A stretch of DNA of 44,499 nucleotides from the NCBI GenBank assembly GCA_016927375.1, contig JAFGMS010000157.1, positions 1-44,499 of the forward strand. The letters run 5' to 3'. This document shows, piece after piece, positions 8,287 through 32,489 of this stretch. The notes beneath the pieces were generated by a model. That model did no database searches. It saw only the letters and a program-made list of their open reading frames with translations, and was not told where the DNA came from. This DNA is from Anaerolineae bacterium. Its GTDB lineage: Bacteria; Chloroflexota; Anaerolineae; Aggregatilineales; UBA3940. Made by a program: the position numbers and the translations under genes. Each line of letters opens with the position of its first letter. Position 1 is the first letter of the stretch.

Positions 8287-9147
8287 TCACAGCGGCTCCA
8301 GCTCCTGTTCGATCTGGGCATCGTAAGCCGCCCGCAGTGCCTTTGCCACCGGGCCCGGCTTCCCATCACCGATCACCACACCCCGCACCTGCACAATCGG
8401 CACAACGCCCCGAGAAGAACTGGTCAGCATTGCCTCAGAAATCCGGGGTAGATCGTCCATGTGAATCGGGTCTAAGACCGTCGGCAAAACAGAGGGGGCA
8501 ACTTCCAGAAGGATACTGCGAGCGATGCCTTCCAGCACGCCATCACCTGCCGTACGCAGCTCTCCATCCAGCACCGCGAAGAAATTGCTGCTCAGCCCTT
8601 CGAGGATCCAACCGGCACCGTCATACATCATAATCTCATAGACGCTGTAAGGATGGCGCATCCTGGCCTTCTTGCGCCACTCGATGAACTGTGAATCTTT
8701 GGCGCGTGGTACCTCACGTCTGCCCTCCACAAGACCAACACTGACCCCCTCCTGGTAGAGAGCCGCCGGCAGCGGCGTGAACGGCTCCAGAGCGATAAAA
8801 ACCGTCTCAGGTGCATCAAAGGGCACAGTCAGCCGGATACGTACCAGAGCAAGCCCGATCTCTTCCACCACGCGCCGCAGGACCAGACGCATCCAGTCAT
8901 ATGTCAGCAGAAAAGGCTCTCCGAGCAAGTCTGCTGAATGGCGCAGCCGTGCAAAATGACTGGCCAAACGAAAGACCCGCCATCCCGGGTAGAGACGAAA
9001 GACGGTATACACACCATGACCGTTTTGAAGCGCAGCCTCATCCAGACTATCCGCCTGAACAGGCACACGCTCCAACACTTCACCACAGGCTCGAAACATG
9101 CTAACCGATGACATACAGACCTCATCCACAGGACGCATCCTGAGCAA
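8287..9147 (-). CDS. class IV (fold-type IV) PLP-dependent aminotransferase family protein
   Basis: 286-aa ORF with the layout of BCAT/DAAT/ADC-lyase proteins (YTVFRLY..., ...EGLSSNFF..., GVLEGIAR, TSSSRGVVPI). Exact activity not assignable. Start uncertain. Confidence 0.65.
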   Translation of the reverse strand: MLRMRPVDEVCMSSVSMFRACGEVLERVPVQADSLDEAALQNGHGVYTVFRLYPGWRVFRLASHFARLRHSADLLGEPFLLTYDWMRLVLRRVVEEIGLALVRIRLTVPFDAPETVFIALEPFTPLPAALYQEGVSVGLVEGRREVPRAKDSQFIEWRKKARMRHPYSVYEIMMYDGAGWILEGLSSNFFAVLDGELRTAGDGVLEGIARSILLEVAPSVLPTVLDPIHMDDLPRISEAMLTSSSRGVVPIVQVRGVVIGDGKPGPVAKALRAAYDAQIEQELEPL

Positions 9148-9156
9148 ATGATTGCC

Positions 9157-10017
9157 TTACCTGGGATAGACAGCGATGACAATAGGCACTTTGGCTCGCG
9201 ATTCGATGGACAGTGACCGCTCCTCTACCTTCAACTCCAAACCGGTCGAGTAGCCGCCATCCAGATTAAAGGCAACAAACAGGTCGAGGTCGGCCTGCTT
9301 GACCATCCAATCACGCAGCAGATAAAGAGACGCTACACCTTCATCGACGACAACAAACACGATCCGTCCCTGTGTATCCTGAGCTACCGCCGTACGGCGG
9401 CTGAGATCGGCGGCCACATCATCGAACTGGTTGGGGAAACCACCAGGATAGAGGATCATCGGGCTGCACTGTACCGCCTGCTCAAAATACTCTTCGGGCT
9501 GGTAAGGGAACTGAGCCAGTGAGCGTATGCTGACGGTATCGCCTGAGACCGTCAGCATACCACCATGATGGTCGAAGGACGTCCCAAAGCGCTGGCCATC
9601 GGCAAAGATCAACCCTCGAGGTTGGTTGTTGGTCTGAAAGAAGCCGCCATTCACCACCAGCAAAGCGCCCAGGCGCTGCTGCCAATTAGACACCTCACCG
9701 GGATTCATCGGCGAGTAATGGACGCGAAAAGCAAACTGCTCCGGATCGATCCGGACGACTGTCACATCAACAGGCGCATTCAGTCCTTCAATCCACATTG
9801 CCATGATGCGCAGCTCAAACCCCGGCAGCCATTCTTCCCACTCCGGTGAAGGGGTAGCACTCGGTGGGAGCGGCGATGGCGTGGCCGAGGCTTCTGCTTC
9901 AGGCAAAGCTGTGCGGGTTGCAACCGGGGTCACCCCAAAAGGCCCGGCCGGCATATTGCAGGCAGCCAACGACAAAACGACAAAGAAGATGAAGAGAGAT
10001 TGGTGAGCAGCAGTCAT
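9157..10017 (-). CDS. phosphodiester glycosidase family (DUF2233) lipoprotein
   Basis: Signal peptide with lipobox LSLAAC, a Pro/Ser/Thr linker, and family motifs VVNGGFF and AFNLDGGYSTG. Confidence 0.75.
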   Translation of the reverse strand: MTAAHQSLFIFFVVLSLAACNMPAGPFGVTPVATRTALPEAEASATPSPLPPSATPSPEWEEWLPGFELRIMAMWIEGLNAPVDVTVVRIDPEQFAFRVHYSPMNPGEVSNWQQRLGALLVVNGGFFQTNNQPRGLIFADGQRFGTSFDHHGGMLTVSGDTVSIRSLAQFPYQPEEYFEQAVQCSPMILYPGGFPNQFDDVAADLSRRTAVAQDTQGRIVFVVVDEGVASLYLLRDWMVKQADLDLFVAFNLDGGYSTGLELKVEERSLSIESRAKVPIVIAVYPR

Positions 10018-10024
10018 GACTCCC

Positions 10025-10846
10025 TCATGCCAGTTTTTGCGCCTTAATGGAATACATCAACGGGATAATCCCATCGCCCTCACTCAGGTGATAATAGCCG
10101 TCATCGCCAAGCTGCATCGATGGCAGCATGGAGCCATCTACGGTATAAGGGAACTCATGCAAGAACTCGATCCGCAGCCCAGCATCGATTAGGGCTGTCA
10201 CGATCTCCCCCAACCTGTGATCCCATTCGTAATGGACACGCTGACTGACCGGCGTCTCCGGCTCGGCATAAGAGCCATCACCCTCGAATTCAAGTGGCTC
10301 TGACTGGCCAAAATAAGGATAGCGCACCTTCAGCTCAGGTGTATCGGCCTCATCGTCAAAGACATAGGCAAAGGGATGCAACTCTGCAATGTAAAACATG
10401 CCGCCCGGCTTCAGAAAGTGGGCAACGATATGAGCCCAGCGCCCGATATCCCGCAGCCAACAAAGGACGCCATAGGAAGTAAACACAATGTCGAATTGAC
10501 CGTCGAGCACATCCGGCAGCCCATAAACATCGGATAGAATGAATGTAGCCGGGATATCCAGCTCACAGCTAAGACGGCGAGCGATTTCAATCGCCTTATC
10601 CGAGAAGTCGATGCCCGTAACGGTCGCTCCCAGGCGCGCCCAGGAAAGAGTATCCAGCCCGAAGTGACACTGCAAATGCAGCAGCGACTTTCCTGACACA
10701 TCGCCAACCTCTTCAAGCTCTAACTGGTGTAGCGATAGCTTCCCTGACTTGAATCCTTCTACATCATAGGATGCCGACTTCTCATGGATGATCGCCCACT
10801 CGTTCCAAAGATTGAGATTGGCCTGGCCATACCTATCCGTGGTCAC
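10025..10846 (-). CDS. class I SAM-dependent methyltransferase
   Basis: Motif I-like LLHLQCHFGLDT followed by VTGIDFSDKAIEIA, and post-I/II motifs (FDIVFTSYGVLCWL, LKPGGMFYI). GTG start overlaps the upstream stop (GTGA). Confidence 0.8.
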   Translation of the reverse strand: MTTDRYGQANLNLWNEWAIIHEKSASYDVEGFKSGKLSLHQLELEEVGDVSGKSLLHLQCHFGLDTLSWARLGATVTGIDFSDKAIEIARRLSCELDIPATFILSDVYGLPDVLDGQFDIVFTSYGVLCWLRDIGRWAHIVAHFLKPGGMFYIAELHPFAYVFDDEADTPELKVRYPYFGQSEPLEFEGDGSYAEPETPVSQRVHYEWDHRLGEIVTALIDAGLRIEFLHEFPYTVDGSMLPSMQLGDDGYYHLSEGDGIIPLMYSIKAQKLA

Positions 10847-11031
10847 GCCACTTCCTTTTGAAGATCGTCACACAGGTCCTTCGATTTCTTTAGCCCGGCA
10901 CCACTCTGGTCAACAACAAGTTTGACGGCTGCGATGCGTTCCCCTCGCCTCAGCAAGTCAATTACTCTCCCGATATCGATCCTCCCCTCGGGAATGTCGT
11001 GCTTTTTGAGCAGCCTAACTATATAGTCCAT
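10843..11031 (-). CDS. 62-aa protein with ribosomal L7/L12 C-terminal-domain-like segment
   Basis: RIAAVKLVVDQSGAGLKKSKDLCDDL resembles the L7/L12 CTD (K-I-A-V-I-K-x-V-R-x-x-T-G-L-G-L-K-E-A-K-D-L-V). Starts 3 nt after the upstream stop and overlaps the next gene by 4 nt. Confidence 0.55.
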   Translation of the reverse strand: MDYIVRLLKKHDIPEGRIDIGRVIDLLRRGERIAAVKLVVDQSGAGLKKSKDLCDDLQKEVA

Positions 11032-11034: not shown

Positions 11035-13908
11035 TCACCTCTTTTCCTTATCTTCTCCTCGCCGGGCCTGTTTGCTCTTGAGCAGACTGGCCGCCGTCCC
11101 CCTACCCGATCCCGGCTGAGAAGCCTGGCGCGGAACCGGCCTGGGAGCTGGATCAGGCTGCTCTCTAGCGGGCTGTACAGGTGCACTGGGTTTCTCTGGC
11201 TCCCCGGTGACCGGGTGGCGCGGCCTGGGCACCCGATCTTTGACCGACAGCAGCGATCCGACACGTGATGCACCGGACTGAACAGGAGCGGCTTTCCGCC
11301 GTCCAATGCCTAACCAGGCCAGCAGCCTGGTCCAATCCGACCGGGCAATAACCAAACGCCGCACAGCGATATCAAAGGGCAGGATGAGTGTTGCGGCCAG
11401 CAGCAGCCAGGGCCAGATCGGCTGCTGCGCGGGGGCGTGGCTCAGATTGTGGGCAAAGACCCCTTCTGCGCTGTCCAACAGAGCACCACCCGTCAACCCT
11501 GTAATATAAGCCAGATAGTCAGGATCGCCGCTGAGAGACCGGTATTCCGGCGAATAGGATAACACCCAACCGGTAGTTTGAGCCAATGCTGCCTTTGAAT
11601 CCGAGCCGTCATCCGGATTGGCGCCCGCTACCCGAACGAAGTAGGCGCCCTCCTCGCCGGGCTCGAAGGTGCCTTCATAGCGCCCCGGCGCGATCTGCTG
11701 GAGCGTCATCGGCGTCGATTCGAGATTGGGGCCAACCACGCTGGCCGTCATCTCCAGATCGTTCAAATAGGAGCCATCATCGGCCAGGGCATCGACGACG
11801 ATATGAGCAGTCTCGCCCTCCTGGGTCACCCGCACTTCGACGTTCTGGTTTACGCCTTCGGTGATCGTCCAGCGCACTGCCTGCGACCAAAAACGAGCAT
11901 AGTCCGGCCAGCCCGCCCAGTTGATCGCCCAGCGCCCGGTAGCATCGGAGGTCCAGGCCACAGCCCGGCCCAGCCCATACTGCCAGGAAGCCAGCAGCGG
12001 ATCCTTCTCATCGGTCATCAGGATTTGTTGAGCTGTCGGCTTGACCGTCGCCCCGACATATCCCATCAGCGAGGGCGTCGAGGAAATGCCGCTGAGGATC
12101 GGGCTGGTGCTGGTCAGCTCCGGGTAAAACTCGTGCTCGATGATATAGGCTTTGGTGGCGATCACCGTTTCCTCAGAGAAAATCTCCGGGATAGTATCGA
12201 CATTATGGGCGTAGTGAAAGCGTCCATCGGCAATCTCGGGCAGCCTTTCGATCCAGGGCGCATACCCCTCGCCTATGGCAATCACCGAGAACGTAATCCC
12301 TTCCTCATCATACATCTTCTGAACAAGATCTGAGACACCGGCCTCAGATGCTCCACCATCGGTTAGGAGAATGATGTGGCGCAGCTGGCTGTCATCCTTG
12401 GGCAGCACCTGGCTGACCGCCAGCACACCGGAATAGATGTCCGTACCTCCTTCAGCACGAATAGTCCCCACTCGCATCGCAACTGAGCTGGGATCTTCCA
12501 GCTTGCTGAGCGGCACCACCCACGAGGCACTCTCATCGAAAGCAACCACACCGACTTTGTCAAATGGATTCAGTAAATTGACCGAGCGGATAATGGCCTC
12601 TTTAGCCAGCTCGACTTTCTGAAAGCCCCCCAGACTGGTATCCGACATCGAACCGGAGTGATCGATGGTGTAGACGACAGCCATCCTCGGCAGCCGCTCC
12701 TGATCCTTGAGCTGCATCTCGACAGGCAGCGTCTCTTCGAGCGGCGTCTGGAAATATCCGCCGACGGCATAAGCATGCGGCCCCCCGATCACCACCAGCC
12801 CGCCACCCAGGTCGCGCACGTAAGACTGGATGATACGCATCTTGCCGGGGCCAAGGTTGCGGGCGGGTACATTCACCAGGACGATGCTCTGGTAGCCGGA
12901 GAGAGTCGCCAGGTCAGCGGGCATGGTAGCGCCTTCGGTGCGATCCACCAGCAGTCCCTGCGAAAGCAGTGCATCGGCCAGATTGCCCATCTCAAAATCC
13001 TCATCAGCGACAATCAGCACCCGTGGGGGGCCTACTACCTGGGTAAAGGCCGAAAGCTCGTTGTTCTGGTAGAAGACATCCGCACTGGCACCCCCCTCGG
13101 GGATCACCTGGACACGGAATGATGTCAACCCGGGCTCTGTAGCAGTCAGAGTAAAGGGGTAGCGGTTGATACCGGGTGTCAGTGCAACGCCCTGCTCGAC
13201 TAGAACCTGTCCTCCTCCGATCACACGCAGCACGGCATTGGCCTGAACGGTGCTCTCGACCGTCACAGTCATATCAAAGGTCTGGCCCTCGCTCATGCGG
13301 GTGGGAACATCCACATCCGTAACCAGCACCTCTGCCCCCTGCACGGTGCTGACCGGCACAGCGACAATCTGCACACCCGAGGCAGCCGCCAGCCGGGCCG
13401 CACCCTCAGCATCTCCACTATTGGCCAACCCATCGGACAAGATAACCATACGACGTGCTGCGCCAGGCGGGTAGAGGGCCATCCCCAGCCGGATAGCCTC
13501 GGCGAGGTCGGTATTTAGCGGGATGACTTTCGACTCGATGGGGCCAGTCTCGCGGCTGCCCGACATCGGGCGCTCGACCAGTGCATCCGAGCCAAAAACC
13601 ACGATAGCCGCCTGATCGTCCACCTGCATCCGGTCGATGGCATCGGCGGCGTACTGGCGTGCATTTTCCACCACTTGAGGCGGCATCGAGTCGGAGGCAT
13701 CGATAAGGAACACGACTGCCAGCCGGTCCGAGGCGCTGACGACCTGAAAACCCGCCAGAGCCAGCACCAACAGGATGATGATCAGAGCACGCAGAAGCAA
13801 CGCTATCCGGGAGCGGGCACGGGCCCACGCCCCGATAGGCCTGCCCAACCACAAGAAATAGGGCAGCATCAGCAGTCCAAGCAAGGCAAGAGGATAGGTA
13901 AAGGTCAT
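11035..13908 (-). CDS. 957-aa membrane-anchored double-vWA protein (BatB-like) with GATase1-like middle module
   Basis: BatA-type N-terminal TM pair. Two MIDAS motifs (VVFLIDASDSM and VVYTIDHSGSM). Module ...IVLVNVPARNLGPGKMRIIQSYVRDLGGGLVVIGG. C-terminal TM and a Pro/Arg-rich tail. Confidence 0.8.
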   Translation of the reverse strand: MTFTYPLALLGLLMLPYFLWLGRPIGAWARARSRIALLLRALIIILLVLALAGFQVVSASDRLAVVFLIDASDSMPPQVVENARQYAADAIDRMQVDDQAAIVVFGSDALVERPMSGSRETGPIESKVIPLNTDLAEAIRLGMALYPPGAARRMVILSDGLANSGDAEGAARLAAASGVQIVAVPVSTVQGAEVLVTDVDVPTRMSEGQTFDMTVTVESTVQANAVLRVIGGGQVLVEQGVALTPGINRYPFTLTATEPGLTSFRVQVIPEGGASADVFYQNNELSAFTQVVGPPRVLIVADEDFEMGNLADALLSQGLLVDRTEGATMPADLATLSGYQSIVLVNVPARNLGPGKMRIIQSYVRDLGGGLVVIGGPHAYAVGGYFQTPLEETLPVEMQLKDQERLPRMAVVYTIDHSGSMSDTSLGGFQKVELAKEAIIRSVNLLNPFDKVGVVAFDESASWVVPLSKLEDPSSVAMRVGTIRAEGGTDIYSGVLAVSQVLPKDDSQLRHIILLTDGGASEAGVSDLVQKMYDEEGITFSVIAIGEGYAPWIERLPEIADGRFHYAHNVDTIPEIFSEETVIATKAYIIEHEFYPELTSTSPILSGISSTPSLMGYVGATVKPTAQQILMTDEKDPLLASWQYGLGRAVAWTSDATGRWAINWAGWPDYARFWSQAVRWTITEGVNQNVEVRVTQEGETAHIVVDALADDGSYLNDLEMTASVVGPNLESTPMTLQQIAPGRYEGTFEPGEEGAYFVRVAGANPDDGSDSKAALAQTTGWVLSYSPEYRSLSGDPDYLAYITGLTGGALLDSAEGVFAHNLSHAPAQQPIWPWLLLAATLILPFDIAVRRLVIARSDWTRLLAWLGIGRRKAAPVQSGASRVGSLLSVKDRVPRPRHPVTGEPEKPSAPVQPAREQPDPAPRPVPRQASQPGSGRGTAASLLKSKQARRGEDKEKR

Positions 13909-13990: not shown

Positions 13991-14407
13991 CTATTCGCCT
14001 ATCATCTGAACCACCAACCGGCGCTGGCGAGAGCGGTTATCGAAATCGATATAGATGATTTGCTGCCAGGTGCCCAGCGTCAATTCACCTTTCACAAACG
14101 GGACGGTCAGGCTGGGGCCAAGCAGCGCCGCCCGCACGTGACTGTGCCCATTCCCATCACCCCATCGAGCGTTGTGGGCATAGTCGCGCCTCGAGTCGAC
14201 GATCTCGTCAAACAAGCGTCGCAGATCGGACAGCGCACCGCTCTCGTACTCGATGGTCGTCAGCCCGCTGGTCGAGCTGGGGCAGAAGACGGTTACAGTA
14301 CCGTCAGCCAGCCCGCTGCCCCGCACCAGCCCGGCAACCTCATCGGTGATATCAGAAATATCGGCATTGCCGCGTGTTGCAAGTTTGATCTCTTTTGTGA
14401 CAACCAT
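13991..14407 (-). CDS. YjbQ/UPF0047 family protein (secondary thiamine-phosphate synthase family)
   Basis: 138 aa. Family-typical TVFCPSSTSGLTTIEYESGALSDL, ...HSHVRAALLGPSLTVPF and ...LGTWQQIIYIDFD. Confidence 0.85.
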   Translation of the reverse strand: MVVTKEIKLATRGNADISDITDEVAGLVRGSGLADGTVTVFCPSSTSGLTTIEYESGALSDLRRLFDEIVDSRRDYAHNARWGDGNGHSHVRAALLGPSLTVPFVKGELTLGTWQQIIYIDFDNRSRQRRLVVQMIGE

Positions 14408-14535: not shown

Positions 14536-16416
14536 TTACCTGCTGCCGACCCACCCCGGCAGCGTGCTGCCTCGATGATAGACCCACCACTCAACAACCA
14601 GAACCGCCAATGCAGCGGCAGCCAGCCAGGGCCATAACTCACGCTGGCCATATTCATCGCGTTCCTCCTTGCCGCTGATCGCCGTCTGACCGACCGTAAT
14701 CGAATCGGCGGGGGTGATGTGGCTCTCGGCGGGTGAGAAAAGGTTCACGGCGAAAGCCGCACTCGTCTCGACCTGCGTACCACTGACCAGCTCTACCTGG
14801 TAGATGCCCAGCTGCGTCGTCGCCGAAAAAGACAAGGGCACCTCGCTCACCGGGAATGTCTGCACGGCGCTATCAGGCAGAGTGATCCGGTAGCCGCTGG
14901 TGTCGGCTTGAGCACGGATGGCTATCGGTTGGCCCGGCCGCAGGCCATCCGGTGCGTCGAAGGGCTGTGATGGCGAATACCACTCCAGCAGGTTGGCAAC
15001 CAGGATCGGGAAATCGATCCGCAGCGGCAGATCGGAGGCATGCAAATCGAAGGTCAGGATGGCAACACGCCGACCTGCCACGGTCCCAACCAGCAACAAA
15101 GGCCCTCCCTCAGCATCGACCAATGCTTTGGCCCAGCCAGGCGTTTGCACCGGCGTCGCCTCGCGAACGGCAACCGGCTCAAAATCCACAAAAGCCAGAA
15201 TGGGATCATCGACCTGACGGACAAAGCGGGTATCGGTGAACTTCTCTCCCACAGCAAACAAATCGGTGCTGTTCGGCGGATTGATGATCAGGAGGTTGGT
15301 TTCAGGGAGCTCCTCAGGCAGCCAACCATCGAGCACCACCAGATCGAACCGCTCTTGCGGCAGCTCGCCGGGCGTTGCGCGGAAAGCATTCAGCGTGGGG
15401 AAAGCCGAAAAGACCTGCTGCAAAAACAGGTTGCTCTCGGTGACAATCAAGACTTGCCCGCTCACAGGCGGCGTATAGACGGCATAAGCCACGTCGTCCA
15501 CCGGCAGATAATCGCTGCCACCACCTTCGACGGGCGCGCTCAGCGAGGCCCTGATAAGCCGGGTCGAGGAAGGCAAATCCGTGATGGTGCGGTTGGCCGT
15601 CTCGCCCGCCGGAACACTCAGCCGCTCAGCAGACAGCAGCTCGCTGTCCACCTCCAGACTGAGGATGATGTCGGCATCTTCAGTTCCGGTATTGGTAACG
15701 GCCGCAAACAGCTGCGGCCTGTCGTCCAATGGGCGGGTGGCCAATGCCGATATGGCCAGGTTCGACGAACGCCTCCCAACCTTTATGTAGCGCACCGGGA
15801 CAGGCAGCGCGGGCAGATTGGTAGGCAGGCCGCCGTCAGAGATAATCACGACGCTGGCCTGCTCCCGCCCGGCGATGCTTGCTCCGGCCAGCGCCAGCGC
15901 GGCCTCCCAATCAGCCGGAGCCTGGGTGGGCTCTGCCCGGTTCAGCGCCGCTCGCAGCACGGTCTGATCGCCGCTGGGCGGGCTGATGACATTCGGCGTT
16001 GGTCCAACTGTGATGATGGTCATCACCTCATCGCTGGCCAGATCACCAATCAAAGCTCGCGCCTGGCTACGGGCGGCGTCAAAGCGCGTCGCCCCGCCCG
16101 TCATATCGGCAGCGTTCATGCTGGCAGAAGCATCGATGAGCAAAGCAACACTGCCGGCTGCCACACTGGGGATCGGGATGAACGGCCGGGCCAATGCGAT
16201 CACCAGGGCAGCAAGGATCAGCAGCTGAAGGATCAGCAGCAGATTGCGGCGAAGCTTCTGCCAGGGCGCATTGGCCTCCCGGTCTTGCATCAGACGCCGC
16301 CACAGCATAATGCTGCTGATCGGCACTTCACGGCGGCGCAGACGCAGCATGTAGAGGATAATGATGGGCACCGCCAGCGCCGCCAGAGCGAGAAAAGTTG
16401 GCGTGAGGAAATTCAT
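14536..16416 (-). CDS. BatA-like vWA-domain membrane protein
   Basis: Aerotolerance-regulator-type N-terminus MNFLTPTFLALAALAVPIIILYMLRLRRR, a second TM, MIDAS VALLIDASASM, and a C-terminal TM. Confidence 0.8.
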   Translation of the reverse strand: MNFLTPTFLALAALAVPIIILYMLRLRRREVPISSIMLWRRLMQDREANAPWQKLRRNLLLILQLLILAALVIALARPFIPIPSVAAGSVALLIDASASMNAADMTGGATRFDAARSQARALIGDLASDEVMTIITVGPTPNVISPPSGDQTVLRAALNRAEPTQAPADWEAALALAGASIAGREQASVVIISDGGLPTNLPALPVPVRYIKVGRRSSNLAISALATRPLDDRPQLFAAVTNTGTEDADIILSLEVDSELLSAERLSVPAGETANRTITDLPSSTRLIRASLSAPVEGGGSDYLPVDDVAYAVYTPPVSGQVLIVTESNLFLQQVFSAFPTLNAFRATPGELPQERFDLVVLDGWLPEELPETNLLIINPPNSTDLFAVGEKFTDTRFVRQVDDPILAFVDFEPVAVREATPVQTPGWAKALVDAEGGPLLLVGTVAGRRVAILTFDLHASDLPLRIDFPILVANLLEWYSPSQPFDAPDGLRPGQPIAIRAQADTSGYRITLPDSAVQTFPVSEVPLSFSATTQLGIYQVELVSGTQVETSAAFAVNLFSPAESHITPADSITVGQTAISGKEERDEYGQRELWPWLAAAALAVLVVEWWVYHRGSTLPGWVGSR

Positions 16417-19636: not shown

Positions 19637-19659
19637 GATTATGTTTCCTTCCCAACATG

Positions 19660-24129: not shown

Positions 24130-25071
24130 CTAGCGTCTGCCCAAACGCAAAGATTTTAGTATCTCTTCATTCTGCTGGTTCACCCATGCCACCGCCCCGC
24201 TGATTCCTACCAACAAACCAACCACCAGAAACAACCGCACAATCTCTAAACCACCCGCCAACAGCGGCATCCGGGTTAACCCATCCCAAACGAGCAAAGA
24301 CAAACTGATTAAAAATACTGCACCGATCAACCCTACAAGTGGGCTAAGGCCGGCATCATGTAACTGAAACGCCGATGTTACTCCAAGCGAGGCCAGCAAA
24401 GGCAGCATCACCCAAGGCATCAATCCGGCACTCAGTGCACGAATCACCAACCGGAAGTAAGGGATGTGACCGTCGGCCGGCAGCCAATTTGAGATGCTGG
24501 CAGGTGTGGCCTCGCCCAGTGCCTGCACTGACTCTTGCCACACGCCGAAGTTGGCTACATCCAGCCGAAGCAAACCGATTATCAAAGCCGGGGTCATTGC
24601 CAGCCCAATGATAATCAACCAACGCAAGCGCCATAGTGTCACCAATGTGAAACCCCAAACAGCTAAACGGGGCTCTAGATCGGTCAGGCGGTGGGGGTTT
24701 TGCCTGGAAAAACGCATCTGCCGTGCCACCCGATCTGCACTGAGGACAGGTGCAGCCAACCCGATAGCCAACACAATTCCCAGACTCGCGTCAAACAGAA
24801 AAGCTCCCAACAGTCCCCAGTTCACTACCCATGCCAGAATAGAGAGTAAGGTAACTCCAATCGCCGAGATAGCAACCCAGTGTCCCATCCCTGCGTCAGG
24901 CATAGGTCTTTCACGCCGGGCATGACTCAACAATGGATTTCCCCACCAGCGTCGTACCGGTGAGGCTAATCTGACCGTCCCGGCCAGCCAAATCGGCCGG
25001 ATTGAACCTTTCACGAAGCGCTCAATCTTGTCAAGGCTCAGCTGATATCCATCATTGCTCACGGTAGCCAC
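24130..25071 (-). CDS. polytopic membrane protein, possible second (divergent) ABC-2-like permease
   Basis: 313 aa. The N-terminal WWGNPLLSHARRER resembles the NPIVLKELRGR box of the 312-aa permease and is followed by multiple TM helices. GTG start. Confidence 0.45.
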   Translation of the reverse strand: MATVSNDGYQLSLDKIERFVKGSIRPIWLAGTVRLASPVRRWWGNPLLSHARRERPMPDAGMGHWVAISAIGVTLLSILAWVVNWGLLGAFLFDASLGIVLAIGLAAPVLSADRVARQMRFSRQNPHRLTDLEPRLAVWGFTLVTLWRLRWLIIIGLAMTPALIIGLLRLDVANFGVWQESVQALGEATPASISNWLPADGHIPYFRLVIRALSAGLMPWVMLPLLASLGVTSAFQLHDAGLSPLVGLIGAVFLISLSLLVWDGLTRMPLLAGGLEIVRLFLVVGLLVGISGAVAWVNQQNEEILKSLRLGRR

Positions 25072-25282: not shown

Positions 25283-25398
25283 CTAGTAAAGTTGGGCATA
25301 AGCTCATCGCCAGCTTAAGGCAATCTTCCCAACTGTATAAAGTGCTTTGCGCTGCACTTCTCAACTGGATACAGATTTCCGCCGCAAAGTACTACTAG
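25283..25398 (+). repeat. CTAG-bounded two-hairpin element, copy b
   Basis: Starts CTAGTAAAGTTGGGC and ends GCAAAGTACTACTAG. Stem 2 is AGTGCTTTGCG (25341-25351) / CGCAAAGTACT (25383-25393). Confidence 0.85.
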
Positions 25399-26345
25399 GA
25401 CACAATACCCTTAGTAGCCCGCATAAAGACCGACTCCAGGTCGCGTGTCTCCTCAGTAAAATGCATCACAGGTACGCCAGCGTTTACCAATGTTGCCAAT
25501 AGCCCACTGACTGCCTGATCATCCCCGAGAAGGCTGACATGTAGCTTGCTGCGACCATTCTCCGGCTTAAGCTCATCTACCGCTTCAATCCCCGTGGCAG
25601 AGAGCAGCACTTGTTGGGCCTGCTCGATATCACCAAGCAACGTAATGATGATCTCCCGATGAGGGACAAGCTTGCGCTGCATCTCCTCAAGACCACCCTC
25701 CATGACCAGCTCACCCGCCTCGATGATGCCCACCTGTGTGCAAATCTCCGCTACATCGGCCAAAATATGCGTCGAAAAGAAGACTGTTTTCCCCATATTC
25801 GCCAACTCAACTAGTAGTTGACGAATCTCAACACGGGCACGCGGGTCAAGGCCAGAGGCCGGCTCGTCGAGAATAAGCACCTGTGGGTCATGTGCCAGGG
25901 TACGCGCCAGGCAGAGGCGCTGCTTCATGCCCCGTGAGAGGCTATCCACCATGTCATCGGCACGGTGCGTCAAATCAACCAACTCCAGCAGGTCACGAAT
26001 CAACGCTGGGCGGTCTGCCTCTGGAATATCGTAGCAGGCAGCAAAGAAGTCTAAGTATTCCCAGACCTTCATGTCATCATACACGCCGAAGAAATCAGGC
26101 ATGTAGCCGATCATACGGCGTACGTCACGCGGCTGTCTGGTGACCGAATAGCCGGCCACCCAAGCCTCACCCGCCGTCGGTGCAAGCAATGTGGTCAGAA
26201 TATGCATAGTGGTCGTCTTGCCGGCACCATTCGGCCCGACAAAACCATAAATCGCCCCTTCTTCAACCTGAAGGGTCAGATCCTTGACCGCCACCACCTT
26301 CTTAAACCGCTTGGTAAGGCCTTTGATCTCAATAATAGCTGCCAT
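25395..26345 (-). CDS. ABC transporter ATP-binding protein
   Basis: Walker A GPNGAGKTT, signature LSRGMKQRL, Walker B VLILDEPASGLD, H-loop STHIL, plus a C-terminal accessory domain. Confidence 0.92.
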   Translation of the reverse strand: MAAIIEIKGLTKRFKKVVAVKDLTLQVEEGAIYGFVGPNGAGKTTTMHILTTLLAPTAGEAWVAGYSVTRQPRDVRRMIGYMPDFFGVYDDMKVWEYLDFFAACYDIPEADRPALIRDLLELVDLTHRADDMVDSLSRGMKQRLCLARTLAHDPQVLILDEPASGLDPRARVEIRQLLVELANMGKTVFFSTHILADVAEICTQVGIIEAGELVMEGGLEEMQRKLVPHREIIITLLGDIEQAQQVLLSATGIEAVDELKPENGRSKLHVSLLGDDQAVSGLLATLVNAGVPVMHFTEETRDLESVFMRATKGIVS

Positions 26346-26467: not shown

Positions 26468-28903
26468 TTACTCGCTCAATAACGTGACATCAAACCGCGC
26501 GATAGAAATACCATAGTTGATTTCGGTTTGGATACGCAGATTCACTCCCCCATTTGCATCTACATAGGATGCAGCATTTCCAATCCGCGTCTCCCCCCAG
26601 TTCACCTGTATGGGTTCCCACCCACCAGTGTTGAAATTCCAGATTTCCACAAGGGGTAGTCTGTTGCTGCCATCACCCTCAAGGTGAATCACCAAAGACT
26701 TAATGGGTGGAACAGATAGTAAGGCAATCGGCTGGAAGCGGAAAGCAAATGCGTGTTCAGGATCGAGATACAAATTATAGGGTGTAGGATCATAATAACC
26801 ATCAGGATTTTCCAGGAGCTGCCAGGTCATCAAGCCAGGAGGAATCGTATCCATTGTCTGGCTATCGCCGGCCAAGTCAACATTCAACTTCACAATATAT
26901 AACGCGATGTCTGCCTCCTCAAAAGAGGCATTCAGCACATTCGTCCGCAAGGGAACTTCATCGCTCCAGCCCATCAGGAAAACGTCCTCACCACGTCCGT
27001 TATTGACAAGCAAACTGGAGATCAGCTTGCACCGCCGCGCACCATCGTCCGGCGACATATCATAGCAAGAATCTGTATCAGCTATCTGTGCAGGCAAGGA
27101 TCCCGTAGGGCCAAAAGGATCGTAATAATAGTATCCTCCCAAAAATGCCGGATAGGGCTCCAGGCCACTACCGAACGATTGAATAGACTGATCACCAGAA
27201 AAAAGACTATCCACCTGAACAATACCACCAGCGGGTAGATCGGCCAATGCGTCAATCCCGCCGGCCAGCACCAAACTGACATGTGTCATAGATACATCGC
27301 TGGAGTTGATGATATCGCCCACCAGCCTGAGACCTCGTTCACCAGGAACCAGGGTCAGGTTACTCTCGATACGAGGAGCATTCGACATCGCCCCCTCGAT
27401 CACGAAGGGCTGCACCGAACCAATATCCACCTGGACCTGACGCAGCATCACCCCTTGACCTCCCTCGATGACGGCATCCGTTGCAGACGTCAGTGCGCCC
27501 CCAAAGCTGCGCGGGAGCGGGCGGGCCAGATATCCTGGCTCAACCTCGATATCATAGCCCCGCCGGCGAGGTGACCAAACACCTAATAAAGCTTCAACTT
27601 TCGCGCTCTCACTCCCTTCCCAAGATTGGACTACCGCCAACCGGTGCAGGATCACCTGCGACCCGCGTAGTTGAAAACCTGTCAGGTAGGCAATCGCCGA
27701 AAACAGCAGCACCAACCCAGGAATGGTCACCCAGGCCAATTCCCGGCGCTTCAGACGCCACAACACAAGGTAGTTGATCGGCCCGATCAGGATGACATAG
27801 ACAACCAGAAAACCGCACAGCTGAAATACAGATGGAAGAGACACCCCTGGTATCGCCGCTACCGCCTGACGGGCCAACTCCCATTCTGAGGAAAATCCAT
27901 AGGTCCAGCCAGGGCGCGTATCCCCACCACCAAGCACCAACATCCACAGCAAAGGCATGGCCTGCCAGGAGAGAAGCGGCTCCAGCCCCGGATCGGCAGT
28001 CAGAAAGTCCACACGTCCATATCCAAGACGCCGCCAGGCTATCAATGGTATCTCGCCGCCAGCGAACAGAACCTGTGCGTTCCCTGTCAATTCGCCTACT
28101 GCCACCAGCACATCCGTCTTCAAATGGTTATCAAACGGCTCACCAACAGCAGCACTCAATGGCTCGACAGATACCTCAGCCGTAGTGGTAGCATTCAGCG
28201 GGCTCAGCTCGACAAGACCACTCAGTGTGCGCTGGAAGCTCGCTCCCCCTACTATAACCAGCCGGCCACCTTCCCTAATCCAAACTTGCAATGCAGCGCG
28301 TTGTTCCTGCGTGAGCTTCCCCGTATCAGCATCGTAGATCACCAAGACATCCAGCGCCGCCCAGCCTTCTGCCACCGGTGGCAGGTCAGCTTCGGTCAAC
28401 ATCGCTACGGCTGCTTTACCATCAGTTGACTTGACTTTCCCCAGACTGGCAAGCGCACCTGGTGTATCGCTCCATAGCCCGATGAGCAAGACCGTTTGCT
28501 CTACAGACTGCACTTGAACCTGTTGGCTGGCAGCTATCCGATTGCCACTAACCAGATCAACCTGGAGAATGTTATTGAATGTCACAACATCTGCGGGATA
28601 GAGTGTTACTTGCTTGCGCGAGCCCCGAGGCAATTCGATAGGATAGGTATAGAACGTGCGCCCACTGGTAAGGGCATCCACTTGAATACGCAGCTCGCCG
28701 CTGATGTCGGGCCCATTATTGCTGGCTACGACGGTGACCGGCACCCAGGTGTCAGACTGAATATAACTATTGAAGCCAACGTGCACATCGAGTGTCAGTG
28801 GGTCGGTGGTCTGTTGATAAACTGGTATCGCATAAACACTCTTGACCCCAAACAGACCAACCACCAACGCAACTATTAAGATCACACAAACGCGCTTCAG
28901 CAC
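26468..28903 (-). CDS. 811-aa envelope protein with signal peptide, GATase1-like module and central TM pair
   Basis: Signal peptide MLKRVCVILIVALVVGLFGVKSVYA. Module DVLVIYDADTGKLTQEQRAALQVWIREGGRLVIVGG is parallel to that of the 957-aa vWA protein. Two TM helices near aa 350-420. Confidence 0.6.
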   Translation of the reverse strand: MLKRVCVILIVALVVGLFGVKSVYAIPVYQQTTDPLTLDVHVGFNSYIQSDTWVPVTVVASNNGPDISGELRIQVDALTSGRTFYTYPIELPRGSRKQVTLYPADVVTFNNILQVDLVSGNRIAASQQVQVQSVEQTVLLIGLWSDTPGALASLGKVKSTDGKAAVAMLTEADLPPVAEGWAALDVLVIYDADTGKLTQEQRAALQVWIREGGRLVIVGGASFQRTLSGLVELSPLNATTTAEVSVEPLSAAVGEPFDNHLKTDVLVAVGELTGNAQVLFAGGEIPLIAWRRLGYGRVDFLTADPGLEPLLSWQAMPLLWMLVLGGGDTRPGWTYGFSSEWELARQAVAAIPGVSLPSVFQLCGFLVVYVILIGPINYLVLWRLKRRELAWVTIPGLVLLFSAIAYLTGFQLRGSQVILHRLAVVQSWEGSESAKVEALLGVWSPRRRGYDIEVEPGYLARPLPRSFGGALTSATDAVIEGGQGVMLRQVQVDIGSVQPFVIEGAMSNAPRIESNLTLVPGERGLRLVGDIINSSDVSMTHVSLVLAGGIDALADLPAGGIVQVDSLFSGDQSIQSFGSGLEPYPAFLGGYYYYDPFGPTGSLPAQIADTDSCYDMSPDDGARRCKLISSLLVNNGRGEDVFLMGWSDEVPLRTNVLNASFEEADIALYIVKLNVDLAGDSQTMDTIPPGLMTWQLLENPDGYYDPTPYNLYLDPEHAFAFRFQPIALLSVPPIKSLVIHLEGDGSNRLPLVEIWNFNTGGWEPIQVNWGETRIGNAASYVDANGGVNLRIQTEINYGISIARFDVTLLSE

Positions 28904-29140: not shown

Positions 29141-30694
29141 TCAATACGAGCCAGTCACTGCGCAATAGCACGCCGCACCGGCTGGATAGTCTGTACAGAC
29201 AGCCTTAAACAAAGAGGATCCAAAGACAGCTGAACACTGCTCCAGGCAAGTATCGACAGTGCCCGGGTTGCCGCAACTGCCAACAGTTCCACTACAAGTC
29301 CATGCATGTGTATGGGTCTCACATAAGAGAGTTCCGGGGCAGGAGATACTTACGCCAATGTCCGCACACAGTACCCAGTTGGGGGTAGGTGAGGCTGCCT
29401 GCGTCGGCGTCATCGAAGTAGCTGTAGACGTAAAGGGGGTAGTGGGAGATGGTGTAAAGGTAGCCGTTGGGGTACAAGTCGATGTTGGGCGCCAATTCCG
29501 TGGCGTCCGAGTTGCAGTAAGGACAATGGTCGGCGTAAAAGCCCCGGTTGCGGTTGGAACATTTATCAACGAGATAGTCTGGGTGATCGTCGGAATGCCG
29601 GATGGGCCAACGGTCGCAGTCGGCGTTGCAGCAACAAATGCATCTTTATACATACTTACAAGAGCCACGCCGCCCACCGCCATTCCCAGGCAGATTACGG
29701 CAACAACCAGCCAAATCAGCCTGCCGATATTCCACCCATGCCTGGTCCGCTGGTTACCCACGGGTACCCTGGCCATACTGGCCGATGGTAAATGCTGCGA
29801 TACAGATGGTGGCTCATCTCCCGATACATTGGTAGGAGGCATATCAAGCCGGATGCCGCCTTCCAAAACAGTCTGTAGATCGGCAACCAGCGTAGAAGAG
29901 GATGGATATCGCTCATCTGGTTCCTTTGCCAGAATGTGAGAGATGATTGCTTCCATCTCTGCTGGTAGGTCCGGTTTCTCTGTACGGATCTGTGGTATTG
30001 GTTCCAGAATATGTCTCATTGCTACCCTGATGGGTGTATCTGCCTGGTAAGGTGGCTTACCAACCAACATCTCGTACAGAACCACTCCCAAAGAATACAG
30101 GTCGCTGCGGCCGTCCAGCTCCTTGTTACCGTGTGCCTGCTCAGGGCTCATGTAAGCCGGAGTTCCAATGATGCCACTACCTGTATAGGAGGCTGTTGCT
30201 TCCACCAGCCTGACGATGCCAAAATCGGTAAGGTAGGCATCATCATGGTGATCGAACAGAATATTACCTGGCTTCAGATCGCGGTGTATGACCCCTTTTT
30301 GATGAGCTTCGTCAAGAGCTAAGCCGATCCGTTTCACTATCCGAGTGGCTTCGGCCAAAGACAGAGGTCCGCTTTTCAACCTCTCGGCCAGCGATCCTCC
30401 TGTCATCAGGCGCATCACCAGATAGGGTTGATCGCCCTCCTCTCCAAAGTCATAGACCGGGACGATGGCAGCATGTTCCAAAGCAGCAACAGTTTGGGCC
30501 TCACGCTCAAAACGAGCTCGGAAAGTTGTATCGTGCAAGAATTCACGGGGGAGCAACTTGAGTGCAACCTCACGGCGAAAGCGCGGGTCATAGGCACGAT
30601 AAACCGTCGCCATGCCACCGCGGCCAATCTCTGCCTTGATTTCATAGCGACCGATCTTGCTGGGGACCACGAGCATCCTCCCGAAGAGGTACAA
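29141..30694 (-). CDS. Ser/Thr protein kinase (Hanks type) with TM, Thr/Pro linker and Cys-rich ectodomain
   Basis: GRGGMATVYRA...VALK (ATP site), HRDLKPGNIL (catalytic loop), DFG and AYMSPE. TM helix LIWLVVAVICLGMAVGGVALV. 10 Cys in the last ~80 aa. Confidence 0.9.
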   Translation of the reverse strand: MYLFGRMLVVPSKIGRYEIKAEIGRGGMATVYRAYDPRFRREVALKLLPREFLHDTTFRARFEREAQTVAALEHAAIVPVYDFGEEGDQPYLVMRLMTGGSLAERLKSGPLSLAEATRIVKRIGLALDEAHQKGVIHRDLKPGNILFDHHDDAYLTDFGIVRLVEATASYTGSGIIGTPAYMSPEQAHGNKELDGRSDLYSLGVVLYEMLVGKPPYQADTPIRVAMRHILEPIPQIRTEKPDLPAEMEAIISHILAKEPDERYPSSSTLVADLQTVLEGGIRLDMPPTNVSGDEPPSVSQHLPSASMARVPVGNQRTRHGWNIGRLIWLVVAVICLGMAVGGVALVSMYKDAFVAATPTATVGPSGIPTITQTISLINVPTATGAFTPTIVLTATRTPRNWRPTSTCTPTATFTPSPTTPFTSTATSMTPTQAASPTPNWVLCADIGVSISCPGTLLCETHTHAWTCSGTVGSCGNPGTVDTCLEQCSAVFGSSLFKAVCTDYPAGAACYCAVTGSY

Positions 30695-30701
30695 AATCAG
30701 G

Positions 30702-32489
30702 CTAAGGCTCAGGCATCATCACCGGTATAGCCTCAACGATAACAAAGTTCTCAACAGTGACAGCCGATGGGCAGCTCACTTGACTGACTGGAACCCATCC
30801 CAGTTCCTGATGCTCAGCTATACTCCATACCTGCAGCCATTGGCCATCAGATGTACGTCCCCCCACAGCAATCTGTGGAGGCTCTACGAGCACAACCGAC
30901 GTCGGTTTGGCATCTGTAGCAGGCAGCGGAAAGATCTCAGCATTATCGCCCAACGTACAGATTACCGGCCGGATCGCCACCGCTGTAGTACTGGAACGCT
31001 CCACATGATCGGTTCCGGCGATGGTCAACGTGTACTCATGCCTATCCCAGCCAAATTCACTAACCAGCCACCCAAGAGGAACCACCAGGCGACCAGTACT
31101 CCAGTTTTCAGGAGCGATAGGCAGTTCCTGGCCAGTTATGCTGCTCAGGAGAGCATATTCTGCAACATCAGAGGGACTCTCCACCTGCCATGAGAACACC
31201 ACATTACCAATCATGCCAAAGCCTGCCTCGGCAGGTTGAGCCCGGAATTCGATGATGCTCACCACTGGCGTTGGGATGACGGTTGGAGAAGGAATTAGCG
31301 CCGGTGTCCATGTTGGAGTCGTTGTAACTGTCAGTGCAGCTGATTCGGTTCCCGCTGGCTCAAGGAAAGCAAGAGGCAAAACGCCTGTGAAGATCAACCC
31401 GGCAATCAGGATCAGCGTTGCCAAACCGCCAACCAGTATCAAGGGCAGGCTTAGTCCTGCCAACCAGGCAGGCCAGGAAGGCATAATTGTATACCTGGCT
31501 AGCAAAGGAGCCTGATAGCCCGCCTTATCCAGTGATCGCGCGACTATCGCGAAATTGACCTGGCGAGCACGCCCGAAAGGACGCCTCTTAGCCGAACGTA
31601 CTCCCAATTCAACTTGGGCCGTTTGTCCTGGCTCAAGATGCAAACGGGAAGAACTGAATTTGTAGTGCAACAGCTTCTCGCGCTGATAACCTTCAAGGCA
31701 AAGCCCAATGGACATGTTTCCTTGATTTTGTATGGCCAGATGATAGTGTCCGGCTCGTTTTCCCTCGTGGGCAGCCATCGCGATCCCAGCGAAACCTGCT
31801 ATCTCTATCTCGCGTGTTGCCTCAATATACTGTCCAGGGTCGCTCTTGATGGTTACTCTTATAGTCAATGGATACAGGCCGGGACGCGTTGTGATGTTGC
31901 GTGGGGGACGGATCGAGAACATGACTTCTGTTTGCTCATTGGGCTCAAGATGCACCTCTCGTCGATTGCTCTTGACCCACTCAGAATCCATACCGCCTGT
32001 CTCGACGGTAAAAACATAGTCATCCTTGCCTCGGTTTTGGATAACCATGACCAACTGTGCATGAGAACCTGGTGCAACGGGCTGCTGTGGATCGTCAACA
32101 ACAAGGCTCATCGGCACACGAGGATCTTCAAACACGGTCATGCTGGGAGCCAGGCTGGCCTCGATATCGATTGACCTGAAATGGGTTGTGGGTATGTGAA
32201 AGATCAGCTGCACATCGCCCATCATAATGACATCACCATCCGTCAGAGGGTGACGGCTGTTCGGCTCGATTTGTCGATCATTGACAAACGTACCATTGAC
32301 GGTACCTAAATCAACGAGAAAGACATTACCCTCGGCCACATCAAACTGGGCATGATAGCGTGACACAGCCGACGTGTTGAGCACGATGTCATTGCCAGGT
32401 TGACGCCCTATCGACGTCGTAGGCTTAGTCAGTTCGACCTCGCCAAATGCGCTGCCTTCGCCGAGAATCGTGAGCTTGCCAAAAGCCAT
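30702..32489 (-). CDS. FHA-domain membrane protein with beta-sandwich repeats and SH3b-like C-terminus
   Basis: FHA motifs TSIGRQPGNDIVLNTSAVSRYHAQF and GTVNGTFVN. Start taken at MAFGKLTIL (32489); the tracked ORF extends to 32603. One TM region near aa 330-370 counted from that start. Confidence 0.85.
   Translation of the reverse strand: MAFGKLTILGEGSAFGEVELTKPTTSIGRQPGNDIVLNTSAVSRYHAQFDVAEGNVFLVDLGTVNGTFVNDRQIEPNSRHPLTDGDVIMMGDVQLIFHIPTTHFRSIDIEASLAPSMTVFEDPRVPMSLVVDDPQQPVAPGSHAQLVMVIQNRGKDDYVFTVETGGMDSEWVKSNRREVHLEPNEQTEVMFSIRPPRNITTRPGLYPLTIRVTIKSDPGQYIEATREIEIAGFAGIAMAAHEGKRAGHYHLAIQNQGNMSIGLCLEGYQREKLLHYKFSSSRLHLEPGQTAQVELGVRSAKRRPFGRARQVNFAIVARSLDKAGYQAPLLARYTIMPSWPAWLAGLSLPLILVGGLATLILIAGLIFTGVLPLAFLEPAGTESAALTVTTTPTWTPALIPSPTVIPTPVVSIIEFRAQPAEAGFGMIGNVVFSWQVESPSDVAEYALLSSITGQELPIAPENWSTGRLVVPLGWLVSEFGWDRHEYTLTIAGTDHVERSSTTAVAIRPVICTLGDNAEIFPLPATDAKPTSVVLVEPPQIAVGGRTSDGQWLQVWSIAEHQELGWVPVSQVSCPSAVTVENFVIVEAIPVMMPEP

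Follow-up and report, generated by a model that had tools for sequence, protein, structure and literature searches.

A 24-kb run of 20 minus-strand genes in the genome of an Anaerolineae bacterium (Chloroflexota) holds one conserved composite system of eight genes together with a set of lineage-specific additions (Table 1). The run occupies positions 8287 to 32489 of contig JAFGMS010000157.1, all 44.5 kb of which (44,499 nucleotides [nt]) were analyzed and are referred to below as the window; the assembly measures 5.04 Mb, is 87% complete, and contains a single gene for Y811, the 811-amino-acid (aa) protein with which the system begins. Two modules make up the system. Module A comprises Y811, the ATPase of an ATP-binding cassette (ABC) transporter, and its ABC-2 permease or permeases; module B comprises a 545-aa protein (X545), a MoxR ATPase, a DUF58 protein, a 626-aa protein with BatA-N and von Willebrand factor A (vWA) domains (BatA626), and a 957-aa protein of double-vWA, GATase1-like architecture (V957). 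The modules are fused in one fixed order in the window and in most of the sampled relatives. Gene order, co-occurrence across the phylum, and a domain found in both modules point to a single functional system, to which we assign a probability of roughly 60%.

Conservation of the cluster across Chloroflexota

A scan of one genome per species identified 284 genomes with a relative of Y811, and 80 loci were fetched for comparison. The protein collection contained about 200 homologs of Y811, and all of the named ones are from Chloroflexota; a search for relatives outside the phylum that started from a Chloroflexus Y811 paralog likewise returned Chloroflexota for every named match. The order that recurs among the loci is Y811, ABC ATPase, in some cases a second permease, ABC-2 permease, X545, MoxR, DUF58, BatA626, and V957. 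An earlier note on this DNA had pointed to a physical link between the exporter, Y811, X545, and the MoxR-DUF58-vWA genes; the link is not peculiar to the window genome, and the order is kept in dozens of species genomes, down to 30% identity in Y811.

Synteny was counted in the 45 loci with at least 9 kb of sequence downstream of Y811, bearing in mind that the later genes often lie past the end of the locus. Of these loci, 44 contain the ABC ATPase, 43 the ABC-2 permease, 40 X545, 36 MoxR, and 32 DUF58, and the genes found are colinear in all 45. Identity to the window protein ranges from 57 to 93% for the ABC ATPase across 76 loci and from 61 to 81% for MoxR across 44 loci. Median gaps are 18 nt between Y811 and the ATPase, 4 nt between the permease and X545, and 72 nt between DUF58 and BatA; the gap between the permease and X545 is at most 150 nt in 53 of 57 cases, making the junction of modules A and B the tightest in the cluster. 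Lineage-specific genes accumulate at three hot spots, namely, between the ATPase and the permease, between X545 and MoxR, and between MoxR and DUF58. The genes upstream of Y811 vary by clade, and downstream of V957 no family recurs, the next gene being on the other strand in 5 of 9 genomes. Because the flanks vary on both sides, the conserved unit extends from Y811 to V957. The cluster is single copy, syntenic, and vertically conserved.

Module A: a probable ABC-2 transporter with a GldG-like accessory

The AlphaFold2 model of Y811, built from an alignment of 108 homologs, is confident (predicted local distance difference test [pLDDT], 90.3; predicted template modeling score, 0.89). An N-terminal helix (residues 2 to 18), which serves as signal or anchor, is followed by a beta-sandwich (36 to 134), an alpha/beta domain (139 to 301), a transmembrane (TM) hairpin (359 to 383 and 387 to 413), and two beta-rich regions (417 to 570 and 640 to 811). 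In a Foldseek search against the PDB, the alpha/beta domain best matched GATase1-like structures of the PF07090 type (2gk3 and 3soz, both with E ∼1e-7, and 3rht). The domain is noncatalytic in Y811, with GGAS where the nucleophilic cysteine is expected. The TM hairpin, with its cytoplasmic RLKRRELAW loop, is invariant and holds most of the invariant residues of the family.

Profile matches place Y811 near two families. The window protein scores 25.4 bits against DUF7408 (cut-off, 27) and 19.4 bits against DUF4350 (cut-off, 30.4), and a six-frame search gave 28.7 bits, above the cut-off. Among 18 family members, DUF7408 was matched by all 18 and DUF4350 by 17 (best E, 1e-10 and 9e-8, respectively). 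For the ABC-2 transporter, Y811 likely serves as a GldG-like accessory subunit. Identity with GldG itself was considered and rejected at the sequence level: neither TIGR03521 nor ABC_transp_aux was matched by any of the 18 members (E ≤ 1, NCBIfam or Pfam), and the fold class alone is in common.

Many Chloroflexota genomes carry two Y811 paralogs, one of which is short, at about 640 aa, and spans the first two thirds only; the loci concerned include, for example, G083:C22:35623-37713, G119:C4:74361-76007, and G205:C144:5383-7011. In some families, the Y811-like open frame reaches 1,000 to 1,390 aa, which suggests extra fused domains.

The ABC ATPase scores 257 bits against TIGR01188 and 234 bits against TIGR03522, both under the cut-off; for the latter, the GldA equivalog model, the cut-off is 402.6 bits. 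Similarly, the ABC-2 permease does not reach the GldF equivalog model TIGR03518 (23.8 bits versus a cut-off of 288.5; E = 3.9e-5). A gene of 270 to 320 aa stands between the ATPase and the permease in 19 loci, about one-third of those with both genes. Outside the clade of the window, these gap genes are ABC-2 permease paralogs, with BLASTP matches to the window permease mostly between 1e-5 and 1e-11 and up to 7e-4. In the window and its closest relatives, the position is taken by TM313, a polytopic membrane protein. Alignment of the TM313 family with the permease paralogs by hhalign gave a probability of 83.5% (E = 8.4e-6), and TM313 probably represents a second ABC-2 permease subunit that has diverged strongly.

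Module B: a Bat-like set of genes

X545 has three TM helices, a confidently modeled all-helical outer domain (residues 178 to 392), and a conserved C-terminal helix pair; the AlphaFold2 model has a pLDDT of 82.7 and includes a disordered stretch rich in Gly, Gln, and Pro (399 to 499). A Foldseek search of the model against the PDB gave no match (best E, 0.47). Gene assignments in the window were made with Pfam and NCBIfam profile searches of its proteins, and Pfam agrees with the domain labels of the earlier note, except that the 545-aa protein, there called DUF4175-like, has no such match: PF13779 was found neither in X545 (E ≤ 10) nor in any of 40 family members nor anywhere in the genome.

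MoxR scores 210 bits against PF07726 (cut-off, 27), and its true start is likely at 19636. The DUF58 protein is presumed to be a cytoplasmic, vWA-like adaptor of MoxR. BatA626 consists of a BatA-N double-TM domain, a vWA domain that faces outward and has a metal ion-dependent adhesion site (MIDAS) motif (DASAS), further outer domains, and a C-terminal TM helix. V957 begins with a double-TM N terminus, continues with a first vWA domain (DASDS), a GATase1-like domain split by a second vWA domain (DHSGS), and a filamin-like immunoglobulin (Ig) domain, and ends in a TM helix and a basic, Pro-rich cytoplasmic tail of about 100 aa. Motifs read from the sequence are intact in all of these proteins: Walker A and B in MoxR and the ABC ATPase and DxSxS in DUF58, BatA626, and both vWA domains of V957. 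A Pfam search of the 19 array proteins of at least 60 aa found no tetratricopeptide repeat (TPR; BatC/BatE) and no BatD family.

The gap between MoxR and DUF58 is occupied in several lineages. In the window, a 46-aa open reading frame (ORF) directly follows the MoxR stop codon; a TM peptide resembling it lies in the same gap of locus L001 (18154 to 18240; E = 7.6e-4), and the annotation of L002 has a gene of 43 aa at this place. The ORF may encode a small membrane peptide conserved in the closest clade only. A protein of about 200 aa with no obvious family was observed in this gap in nine loci of other clades (L030, L032, L040, L045, L061, L067, L068, L070, and L072) and may be a lineage-specific accessory of module B.

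A GATase1-like domain in both modules

The claim of the earlier note that the 811- and 957-aa proteins share a module proved real at the profile and fold levels. The motifs concerned lie at residues 185 to 220 of Y811 and 340 to 376 of V957. A direct BLASTP comparison of the two proteins was not significant (E = 0.68), and the Pfam GATase1_like match in V957 spans only the last third of the model, past the second vWA domain. With this domain (409 to 582) cut out in silico, the joined segments (285 to 408 and 583 to 690) gave a match to PF07090 that runs across the splice (E = 7.9e-19) and a weak one to DUF7408, the family that matches Y811. Taken together, the fold match of Y811 and the splice match of V957 identify the shared motif as the strand-helix-strand core of a noncatalytic GATase1-like domain present in both proteins. 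In Y811, the motif holds several family invariants (D193, Q201, W208, G212, G213, and G220).

Hydropathy and counts of Lys and Arg predict that much of the system faces outward: about 700 aa of Y811, 370 of X545, 515 of BatA626, and 775 of V957, as well as about 230 of a forkhead-associated (FHA) protein encoded upstream. By hydropathy, no TM helix is present in MoxR, DUF58, or the ABC ATPase. The predicted position of the vWA domains outside the cell agrees with that of the BatA-like protein BB0173, whose vWA domain was mapped experimentally as outward facing (PMC5700661).

A short likeness between the modules was also observed on the inner side of the membrane. In Y811 (374 to 391) and in BatA626 (16 to 31), a Pro-containing TM helix ends with a cytoplasmic L(K/R)RRE (GPINYLVLWRLKRRELAW versus VPIIILYMLRLRRREV), which may be due to chance or may represent a common docking motif.

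One system or two neighbors

The explanation that competes most closely with a single functional system is that modules A and B are independent neighbors, an ABC-2 transporter with its accessory and an ordinary Bat-like system, which were joined once in an ancestor and kept together by descent. We consider this rather unlikely. Evidence in its favor comes from genomes of the Chloroflexus type, in which the nearest named proteins are from Chloroflexus species. There, both Y811 paralogs pair with an ABC ATPase and a permease and have no other cluster gene within 10 kb, and X545 lies megabases away, followed directly by MoxR, DUF58, BatA, and V957. Each module is complete there, and the position of X545 next to MoxR assigns X545 to module B and Y811 to module A. 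Furthermore, no MoxR was found within 10 kb in 9 of the 45 loci, and Bat-like operons are widespread without an ABC transporter (PMC5700661, PMC3557215).

Conversely, three observations speak against independence. The junction between the permease and X545 is the tightest of all and is kept down to 30% Y811 identity while both flanks are replaced. The same unusual noncatalytic GATase1-like domain occurs in both modules. Finally, the two marker genes are rarely found alone. Among 401 Chloroflexota genomes, with thresholds of E ≤ 1e-30 for Y811 and E ≤ 1e-25 for X545, both markers are present in 132, Y811 only in 7, X545 only in 7, and neither in 255, so that just 14 of the 146 genomes with either marker hold one without the other. 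This co-occurrence includes genomes in which the modules lie apart. The Fisher test gives P = 2.6e-87, a statistic that ignores phylogeny and to that extent leaves room for shared descent.

Other observations, together with the separability of the modules and the loci lacking MoxR, weigh against a single functional system of the kind considered here. Y811 does not match the GldG model; the scores of the ATPase and the permease remain below the GldA and GldF cut-offs. The cytoplasmic loops of Y811 (RLKRRELAW) and BatA-N (RLRRREVP) show no significant relationship by hhalign (probability, 5.8%). The gene for the FHA protein is found in only about 30% of loci, the other 70% or so lacking it in the 5 kb upstream of Y811, and the kinase gene next to it in the window is found at the same position only in locus L004, as a truncated remnant of 110 aa (L004 2238 to 2570). 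In the window itself, gaps of 237, 323, 265, and 307 nt and five insertions interrupt the cluster, which is therefore probably divided into several transcription units there.

A single functional system of modules A and B nevertheless remains the reading that we favor. The earlier note had proposed one envelope-associated machine. What stands of that proposal is a conserved composite envelope-type cluster of eight genes, with co-occurrence of Y811 and X545, a tight junction between the modules, and an FHA gene in two clades; what does not stand is its extension to the whole array, as detailed below.

Lineage-specific additions and the layout of the array

The array comprises 19 ORFs of at least 60 aa and the 46-aa ORF, making 20 genes. 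The earlier note had placed everything from 32489 down to 8287 on the minus strand, and this is correct: every credible ORF is on that strand, and the plus-strand ORFs are shadows inside minus-strand genes. The junctions quoted there are likewise exact (21349/21352, 2 nt; 11031/11035, 3 nt; 10843/10846, 4-nt overlap; 10017/10025, 7 nt; 9147/9157, 9 nt), and the FHA gene and the kinase gene are separated by 7 nt (30702/30694). Large gaps also occur, of 237 (between the kinase and Y811), 122, 323, 265, 307, and 128 nt; a copy of a miniature inverted-repeat transposable element (MITE) at 25309 to 25394 fills part of the 323-nt gap. GC skew is negative over the whole window and minus-strand genes extend beyond the array, and the co-directionality of the array is partly an effect of strand bias. 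Scans of the array for tRNAs and Rfam families found none. Scans for consensus promoters and terminators returned no more sites than in shuffled sequence and are therefore uninformative about operon structure.

Table 1. Features of the array, listed from its upstream end (minus strand) to its downstream end
Feature	Position in window	Strand	Basis or remark
FHA-Ig-TM protein (595 aa)	30702..32489	-	Pfam FHA, E 5.7e-20; TM helix 348-366 by hydropathy
Hanks-type Ser/Thr kinase (517 aa)	29141..30694	-	Pkinase, E 2.3e-50
Y811 (811 aa), first gene of module A	26468..28903	-	Weak DUF7408/DUF4350
ABC transporter ATPase, DrrA/GldA-like, module A	25395..26345	-	ABC_tran, E 2.5e-29
MITE copy	25309..25394	.	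Adjoins ABC ATPase stop codon; 92% identical to window 1-86
TM313, 313-aa polytopic membrane protein, no family	24130..25071	-	Position of second permease paralog in other clades
DUF6056 polytopic membrane protein	22556..24076	-	DUF6056, E 5.3e-21
ABC-2 family permease, 6 TM helices, module A	21352..22290	-	ABC2_membrane_2, E 0.0011
X545 (545 aa), first gene of module B	19712..21349	-	No Pfam or NCBIfam family
MoxR AAA+ ATPase, MRP (AAA_3) type	18638..19669	-	AAA_3 PF07726, E 1.1e-62; AAA_lid_2, E 3.8e-16
46-aa single-TM ORF between MoxR and DUF58, putative coding	18489..18629	-	Look-alike in L001; 43-aa gene in same gap of L002
DUF58 protein	17365..18330	-	DUF58 PF01882, E 8e-33; DASES (DxSxS) motif; without TM helix
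PD-(D/E)XK_3 (GxxExxY) small gene	16943..17314	-	PDDEXK_3, E 1.7e-38
Aspartate 1-decarboxylase (panD)	16469..16867	-	Asp_decarbox, E 7.1e-47
BatA626 (626 aa)	14536..16416	-	BatA PF07584, E 1.1e-18; VWA_2, E 7e-16; TIGR02226
UPF0047/YjbQ family protein	13991..14407	-	UPF0047, E 4.5e-33
V957 (957 aa), last conserved gene	11035..13908	-	VWA x2 and GATase1_like (Pfam)
Tail of run (62-aa ORF, S-adenosylmethionine [SAM] methyltransferase, NAGPA-family phosphodiester glycosidase, class IV aminotransferase)	8287..11031	-	Pfam
62-aa ORF	10843..11031	-	Starts 3 nt past V957; 4-nt overlap with methyltransferase start
SAM methyltransferase	10025..10846	-	Pfam
NAGPA-family phosphodiester glycosidase	9157..10017	-	Pfam
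Class IV aminotransferase	8287..9147	-	Pfam

The FHA-Ig-TM protein has a cytoplasmic FHA domain with the canonical phosphothreonine-binding residues (GR...SRxH...NGT), Ig-like domains, and an extracytoplasmic C-terminal part. An ortholog lies directly upstream of Y811 on the same strand in 21 of the 73 loci with upstream sequence, in two clades and with a median gap of about 300 nt, and the gene is a lineage-specific accessory of the cluster. One further locus has an FHA-GAF-cyclase gene downstream. The Hanks-type kinase has one TM helix, an outer part rich in Thr, Pro, and Cys, and intact HRD and DFG motifs. Its gene is an insertion between those for the FHA protein and Y811 and lies outside the conserved system. 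In L004, the nearest relative (72% Y811 identity), the kinase remnant is followed by about 560 nt of noncoding sequence, all between the FHA gene and Y811, which looks like recent decay. The PFNA cluster of bifidobacteria brings together genes for a Ser/Thr kinase, for MoxR, for DUF58, and, in some species, for an FHA protein; phosphorylation of the MoxR ATPase by this kinase has been reported (PMC8430577). Given this precedent and the intact binding and catalytic residues of the FHA and kinase domains, phosphothreonine control is plausible in lineages that carry the FHA gene, by analogy and as an add-on rather than as a defining feature.

The remaining additions fall into two groups: the DUF6056 island, the MITE, PDDEXK_3, panD, and yjbQ are insertions at loose junctions, and the four tail genes are neighbors. 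The DUF6056 gene is carried between the two permease-type genes on a low-GC island (22291 to 24129; GC, 0.47 versus 0.55 to 0.60 around it). PDDEXK_3 is found at the same place in only L010 and L014 and is a mobile-looking insertion. The copy of the cluster in the window is unusually punctured by insertions. When all window proteins were compared by tblastn with 83 related loci, no homolog was found of DUF6056, panD, UPF0047, the methyltransferase, the 62-aa ORF, NAGPA, or the aminotransferase; the methyltransferase and the 62-aa ORF were also missing from the downstream regions examined. Of nine downstream regions, one contains NAGPA. Only the two closest genomes have NAGPA and the aminotransferase after V957; homologs of window genes 5920 to 8109, 4372 to 5550, and 2989 to 4233 also lie nearby there, and the retention is residual synteny. 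Two side observations can be added: the 62-aa ORF (10843 to 11031) bears a faint likeness to the C-terminal domain of ribosomal protein L7/L12 (E = 0.04), and a second repeat pair (32723 to 32762 and 34927 to 34966; 88% identical) has one copy just upstream of the FHA gene.

The comparative data largely refute the view, implied by the title of the earlier note, that all 20 genes form one operon-like machine, including the kinase and FHA genes, the GT-C-like DUF6056 gene, panD, yjbQ, and the methyltransferase, NAGPA, and aminotransferase genes. All 20 are co-directional and the tail junctions are 3 to 9 nt or overlapping, as such a machine would have it. However, five of the genes (DUF6056, panD, UPF0047, the methyltransferase, and the 62-aa ORF) occur in none of the 83 related loci, and NAGPA and the aminotransferase are kept only in the two closest genomes, along with other conserved neighbors. 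The gene past V957 is on the opposite strand in most of the genomes compared, DUF6056 sits on its low-GC island, the kinase is lineage specific and reduced to a remnant in the nearest relative, and the modules themselves are split in Chloroflexus-type genomes. A 20-gene machine is thus very improbable. Less probable still is a biological-conflict system (anti-phage or programmed death) of the MoxR-vWA ternary type or built on a defense kinase, since the secondary match of MoxR to bpMoxR (E = 9e-11; 41.7 bits) is far weaker than that to AAA_3 (E = 1.1e-62; 210 bits), the matches of the kinase to PADLOC PD-T4-6 models (E = 4e-99) are confined to the generic Hanks kinase domain, neither a beta-propeller nor an effector domain was found, six of the eight core proteins match no PADLOC model while the ABC ATPase gives generic ATPase-domain matches and MoxR one weak match (DolB; E = 3.2e-4), and the cluster is single copy, syntenic, and vertically conserved, even though multicellular bacteria, Chloroflexi among them, show an enrichment of MoxR-vWA ternary systems (PMC7159879).

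A possible mechanism

If modules A and B act as one system, the ATPase and the permease or permeases would form an ABC-2 transporter to which Y811 would dock through its invariant TM hairpin, displaying its roughly 700 outward residues, the noncatalytic GATase1-like domain among them, in a GldG-like manner. GldG is thought to serve GldAF as an accessory. X545, BatA626, and V957 would be anchored in the membrane, and three MIDAS-bearing vWA domains and the second GATase1-like domain on the outer face would provide a metal-dependent scaffold beside the transporter. From inside, cytoplasmic MoxR with its DUF58 adaptor would assemble or remodel the complex, as other MoxR-vWA pairs do with their client complexes. 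In some lineages, the FHA-Ig-TM protein might link the system to Ser/Thr phosphorylation, with a receptor-type Hanks kinase inserted beside the FHA gene in the window.

Tentatively, the parts could be combined into one two-motor (ABC plus AAA+) trans-envelope machine, in which a GldAFG-like ABC-2 unit acts through Y811, an outer scaffold of X545, BatA626, and V957 is assembled or gated by MoxR-DUF58, and a phosphothreonine switch operates through the FHA-Ig-TM protein in some lineages. We regard this picture as possible but less likely than not. A role of the system in building or maintaining the cell envelope or a surface layer is a guess. Should the two-motor machine exist, the long-uncharacterized Bat/MoxR-MRP operons would gain a concrete partner and, in surface building by filamentous bacteria, a function that can be tested.

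Comparison with known systems

Few bacterial gene clusters without a known function are as widespread as MoxR/DUF58/vWA (Bat-like) operons. The Bat or Cmd operons (Bacteroides aerotolerance; RL3499-RL3502 of Rhizobium leguminosarum; bb0170-bb0176 of Borrelia; bat of Leptospira) have an MRP-type MoxR followed by DUF58 and by BatA-N double-TM proteins with an outward MIDAS vWA domain. The window has the corresponding features, namely, an AAA_3 MoxR, an adjacent DUF58, and a 626-aa membrane protein with BatA-N and a MIDAS vWA domain. In contrast to the Bat and Cmd operons, the cluster is without TPR (BatC/BatE) and BatD proteins and has X545, V957, and the fused ABC-2 module instead. Cmd mutants show envelope and morphology defects (PMC5700661).

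Module A resembles GldA/GldF/GldG of gliding Bacteroidota in combining an ATPase and an ABC-2 permease with a large anchored accessory that has a GATase1/flavodoxin-like outer domain. It differs in that a TM hairpin lies inside Y811, which also has additional beta domains and no GldG match, and in that the ATPase and permease are under the GldA and GldF cut-offs. The organisms that carry the cluster are not known to be gliders of the Bacteroidota type.

A third likeness is to an archaeal neighborhood in which a DUF4350-type, GldG-like outer protein occurs with a COG0714 MoxR, vWA proteins, and several Ig-domain membrane proteins. This arCOG01314 (DUF4350)-MoxR-vWA neighborhood has been predicted to encode a novel complex for secretion or membrane remodeling, and HHpred was used to connect it with GldG (Makarova et al. 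2015, PMC5898192). A MoxR partner likewise lies downstream of Y811 in 36 of 45 loci, and the DUF7408 model also matches the control genomes of Thermotoga, Haloferax, and Methanosarcina. Unlike the cluster described here, the archaeal neighborhood has no ABC transporter described, and its proteins have a single C-terminal TM helix and S-layer-like partners; BatA-N proteins and X545 fall outside that description.

Finally, the PFNA cluster of Bifidobacterium (pkb2, fn3, aaa-atp, and duf58 as well as tgm, with prpC and fha in some species; PMC8430577) combines a Hanks kinase and FHA with an MRP-type MoxR and DUF58. The array is without FN3, transglutaminase (Pfam), and PP2C phosphatase, whereas PFNA is without the ABC-2 module and the BatA/vWA membrane proteins, and the kinase of the window is a recent, dispensable insertion. 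Membership in PFNA was rejected: the array has the kinase, MoxR, DUF58, and FHA, but the profile searches detected neither an FN3 nor a transglutaminase family in it. Membership among the MoxR-vWA-beta-propeller ternary systems was rejected as well, with bpMoxR at 41.7 bits versus 210 for AAA_3, no propeller, and no specific defense-family match.

Full-text literature searches found no paper describing the cluster, and none of the described systems (Bat/Cmd, GldAFG, the archaeal neighborhood, and PFNA) combines an ABC-2 transporter with Y811, X545, and Bat-like genes. The joining of a Bat-like module to an ABC-2 transporter with a GldG-like accessory, together with the phylum-wide co-occurrence of the two, narrows the hypotheses to export or assembly at the envelope. 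A cultured Chloroflexus carries the modules apart and Anaerolineae-type genomes carry them fused, and the FHA and kinase additions, with the PFNA precedent, offer a handle on regulation. Y811, X545, and TM313, now annotated as hypothetical proteins, can be given informative names.

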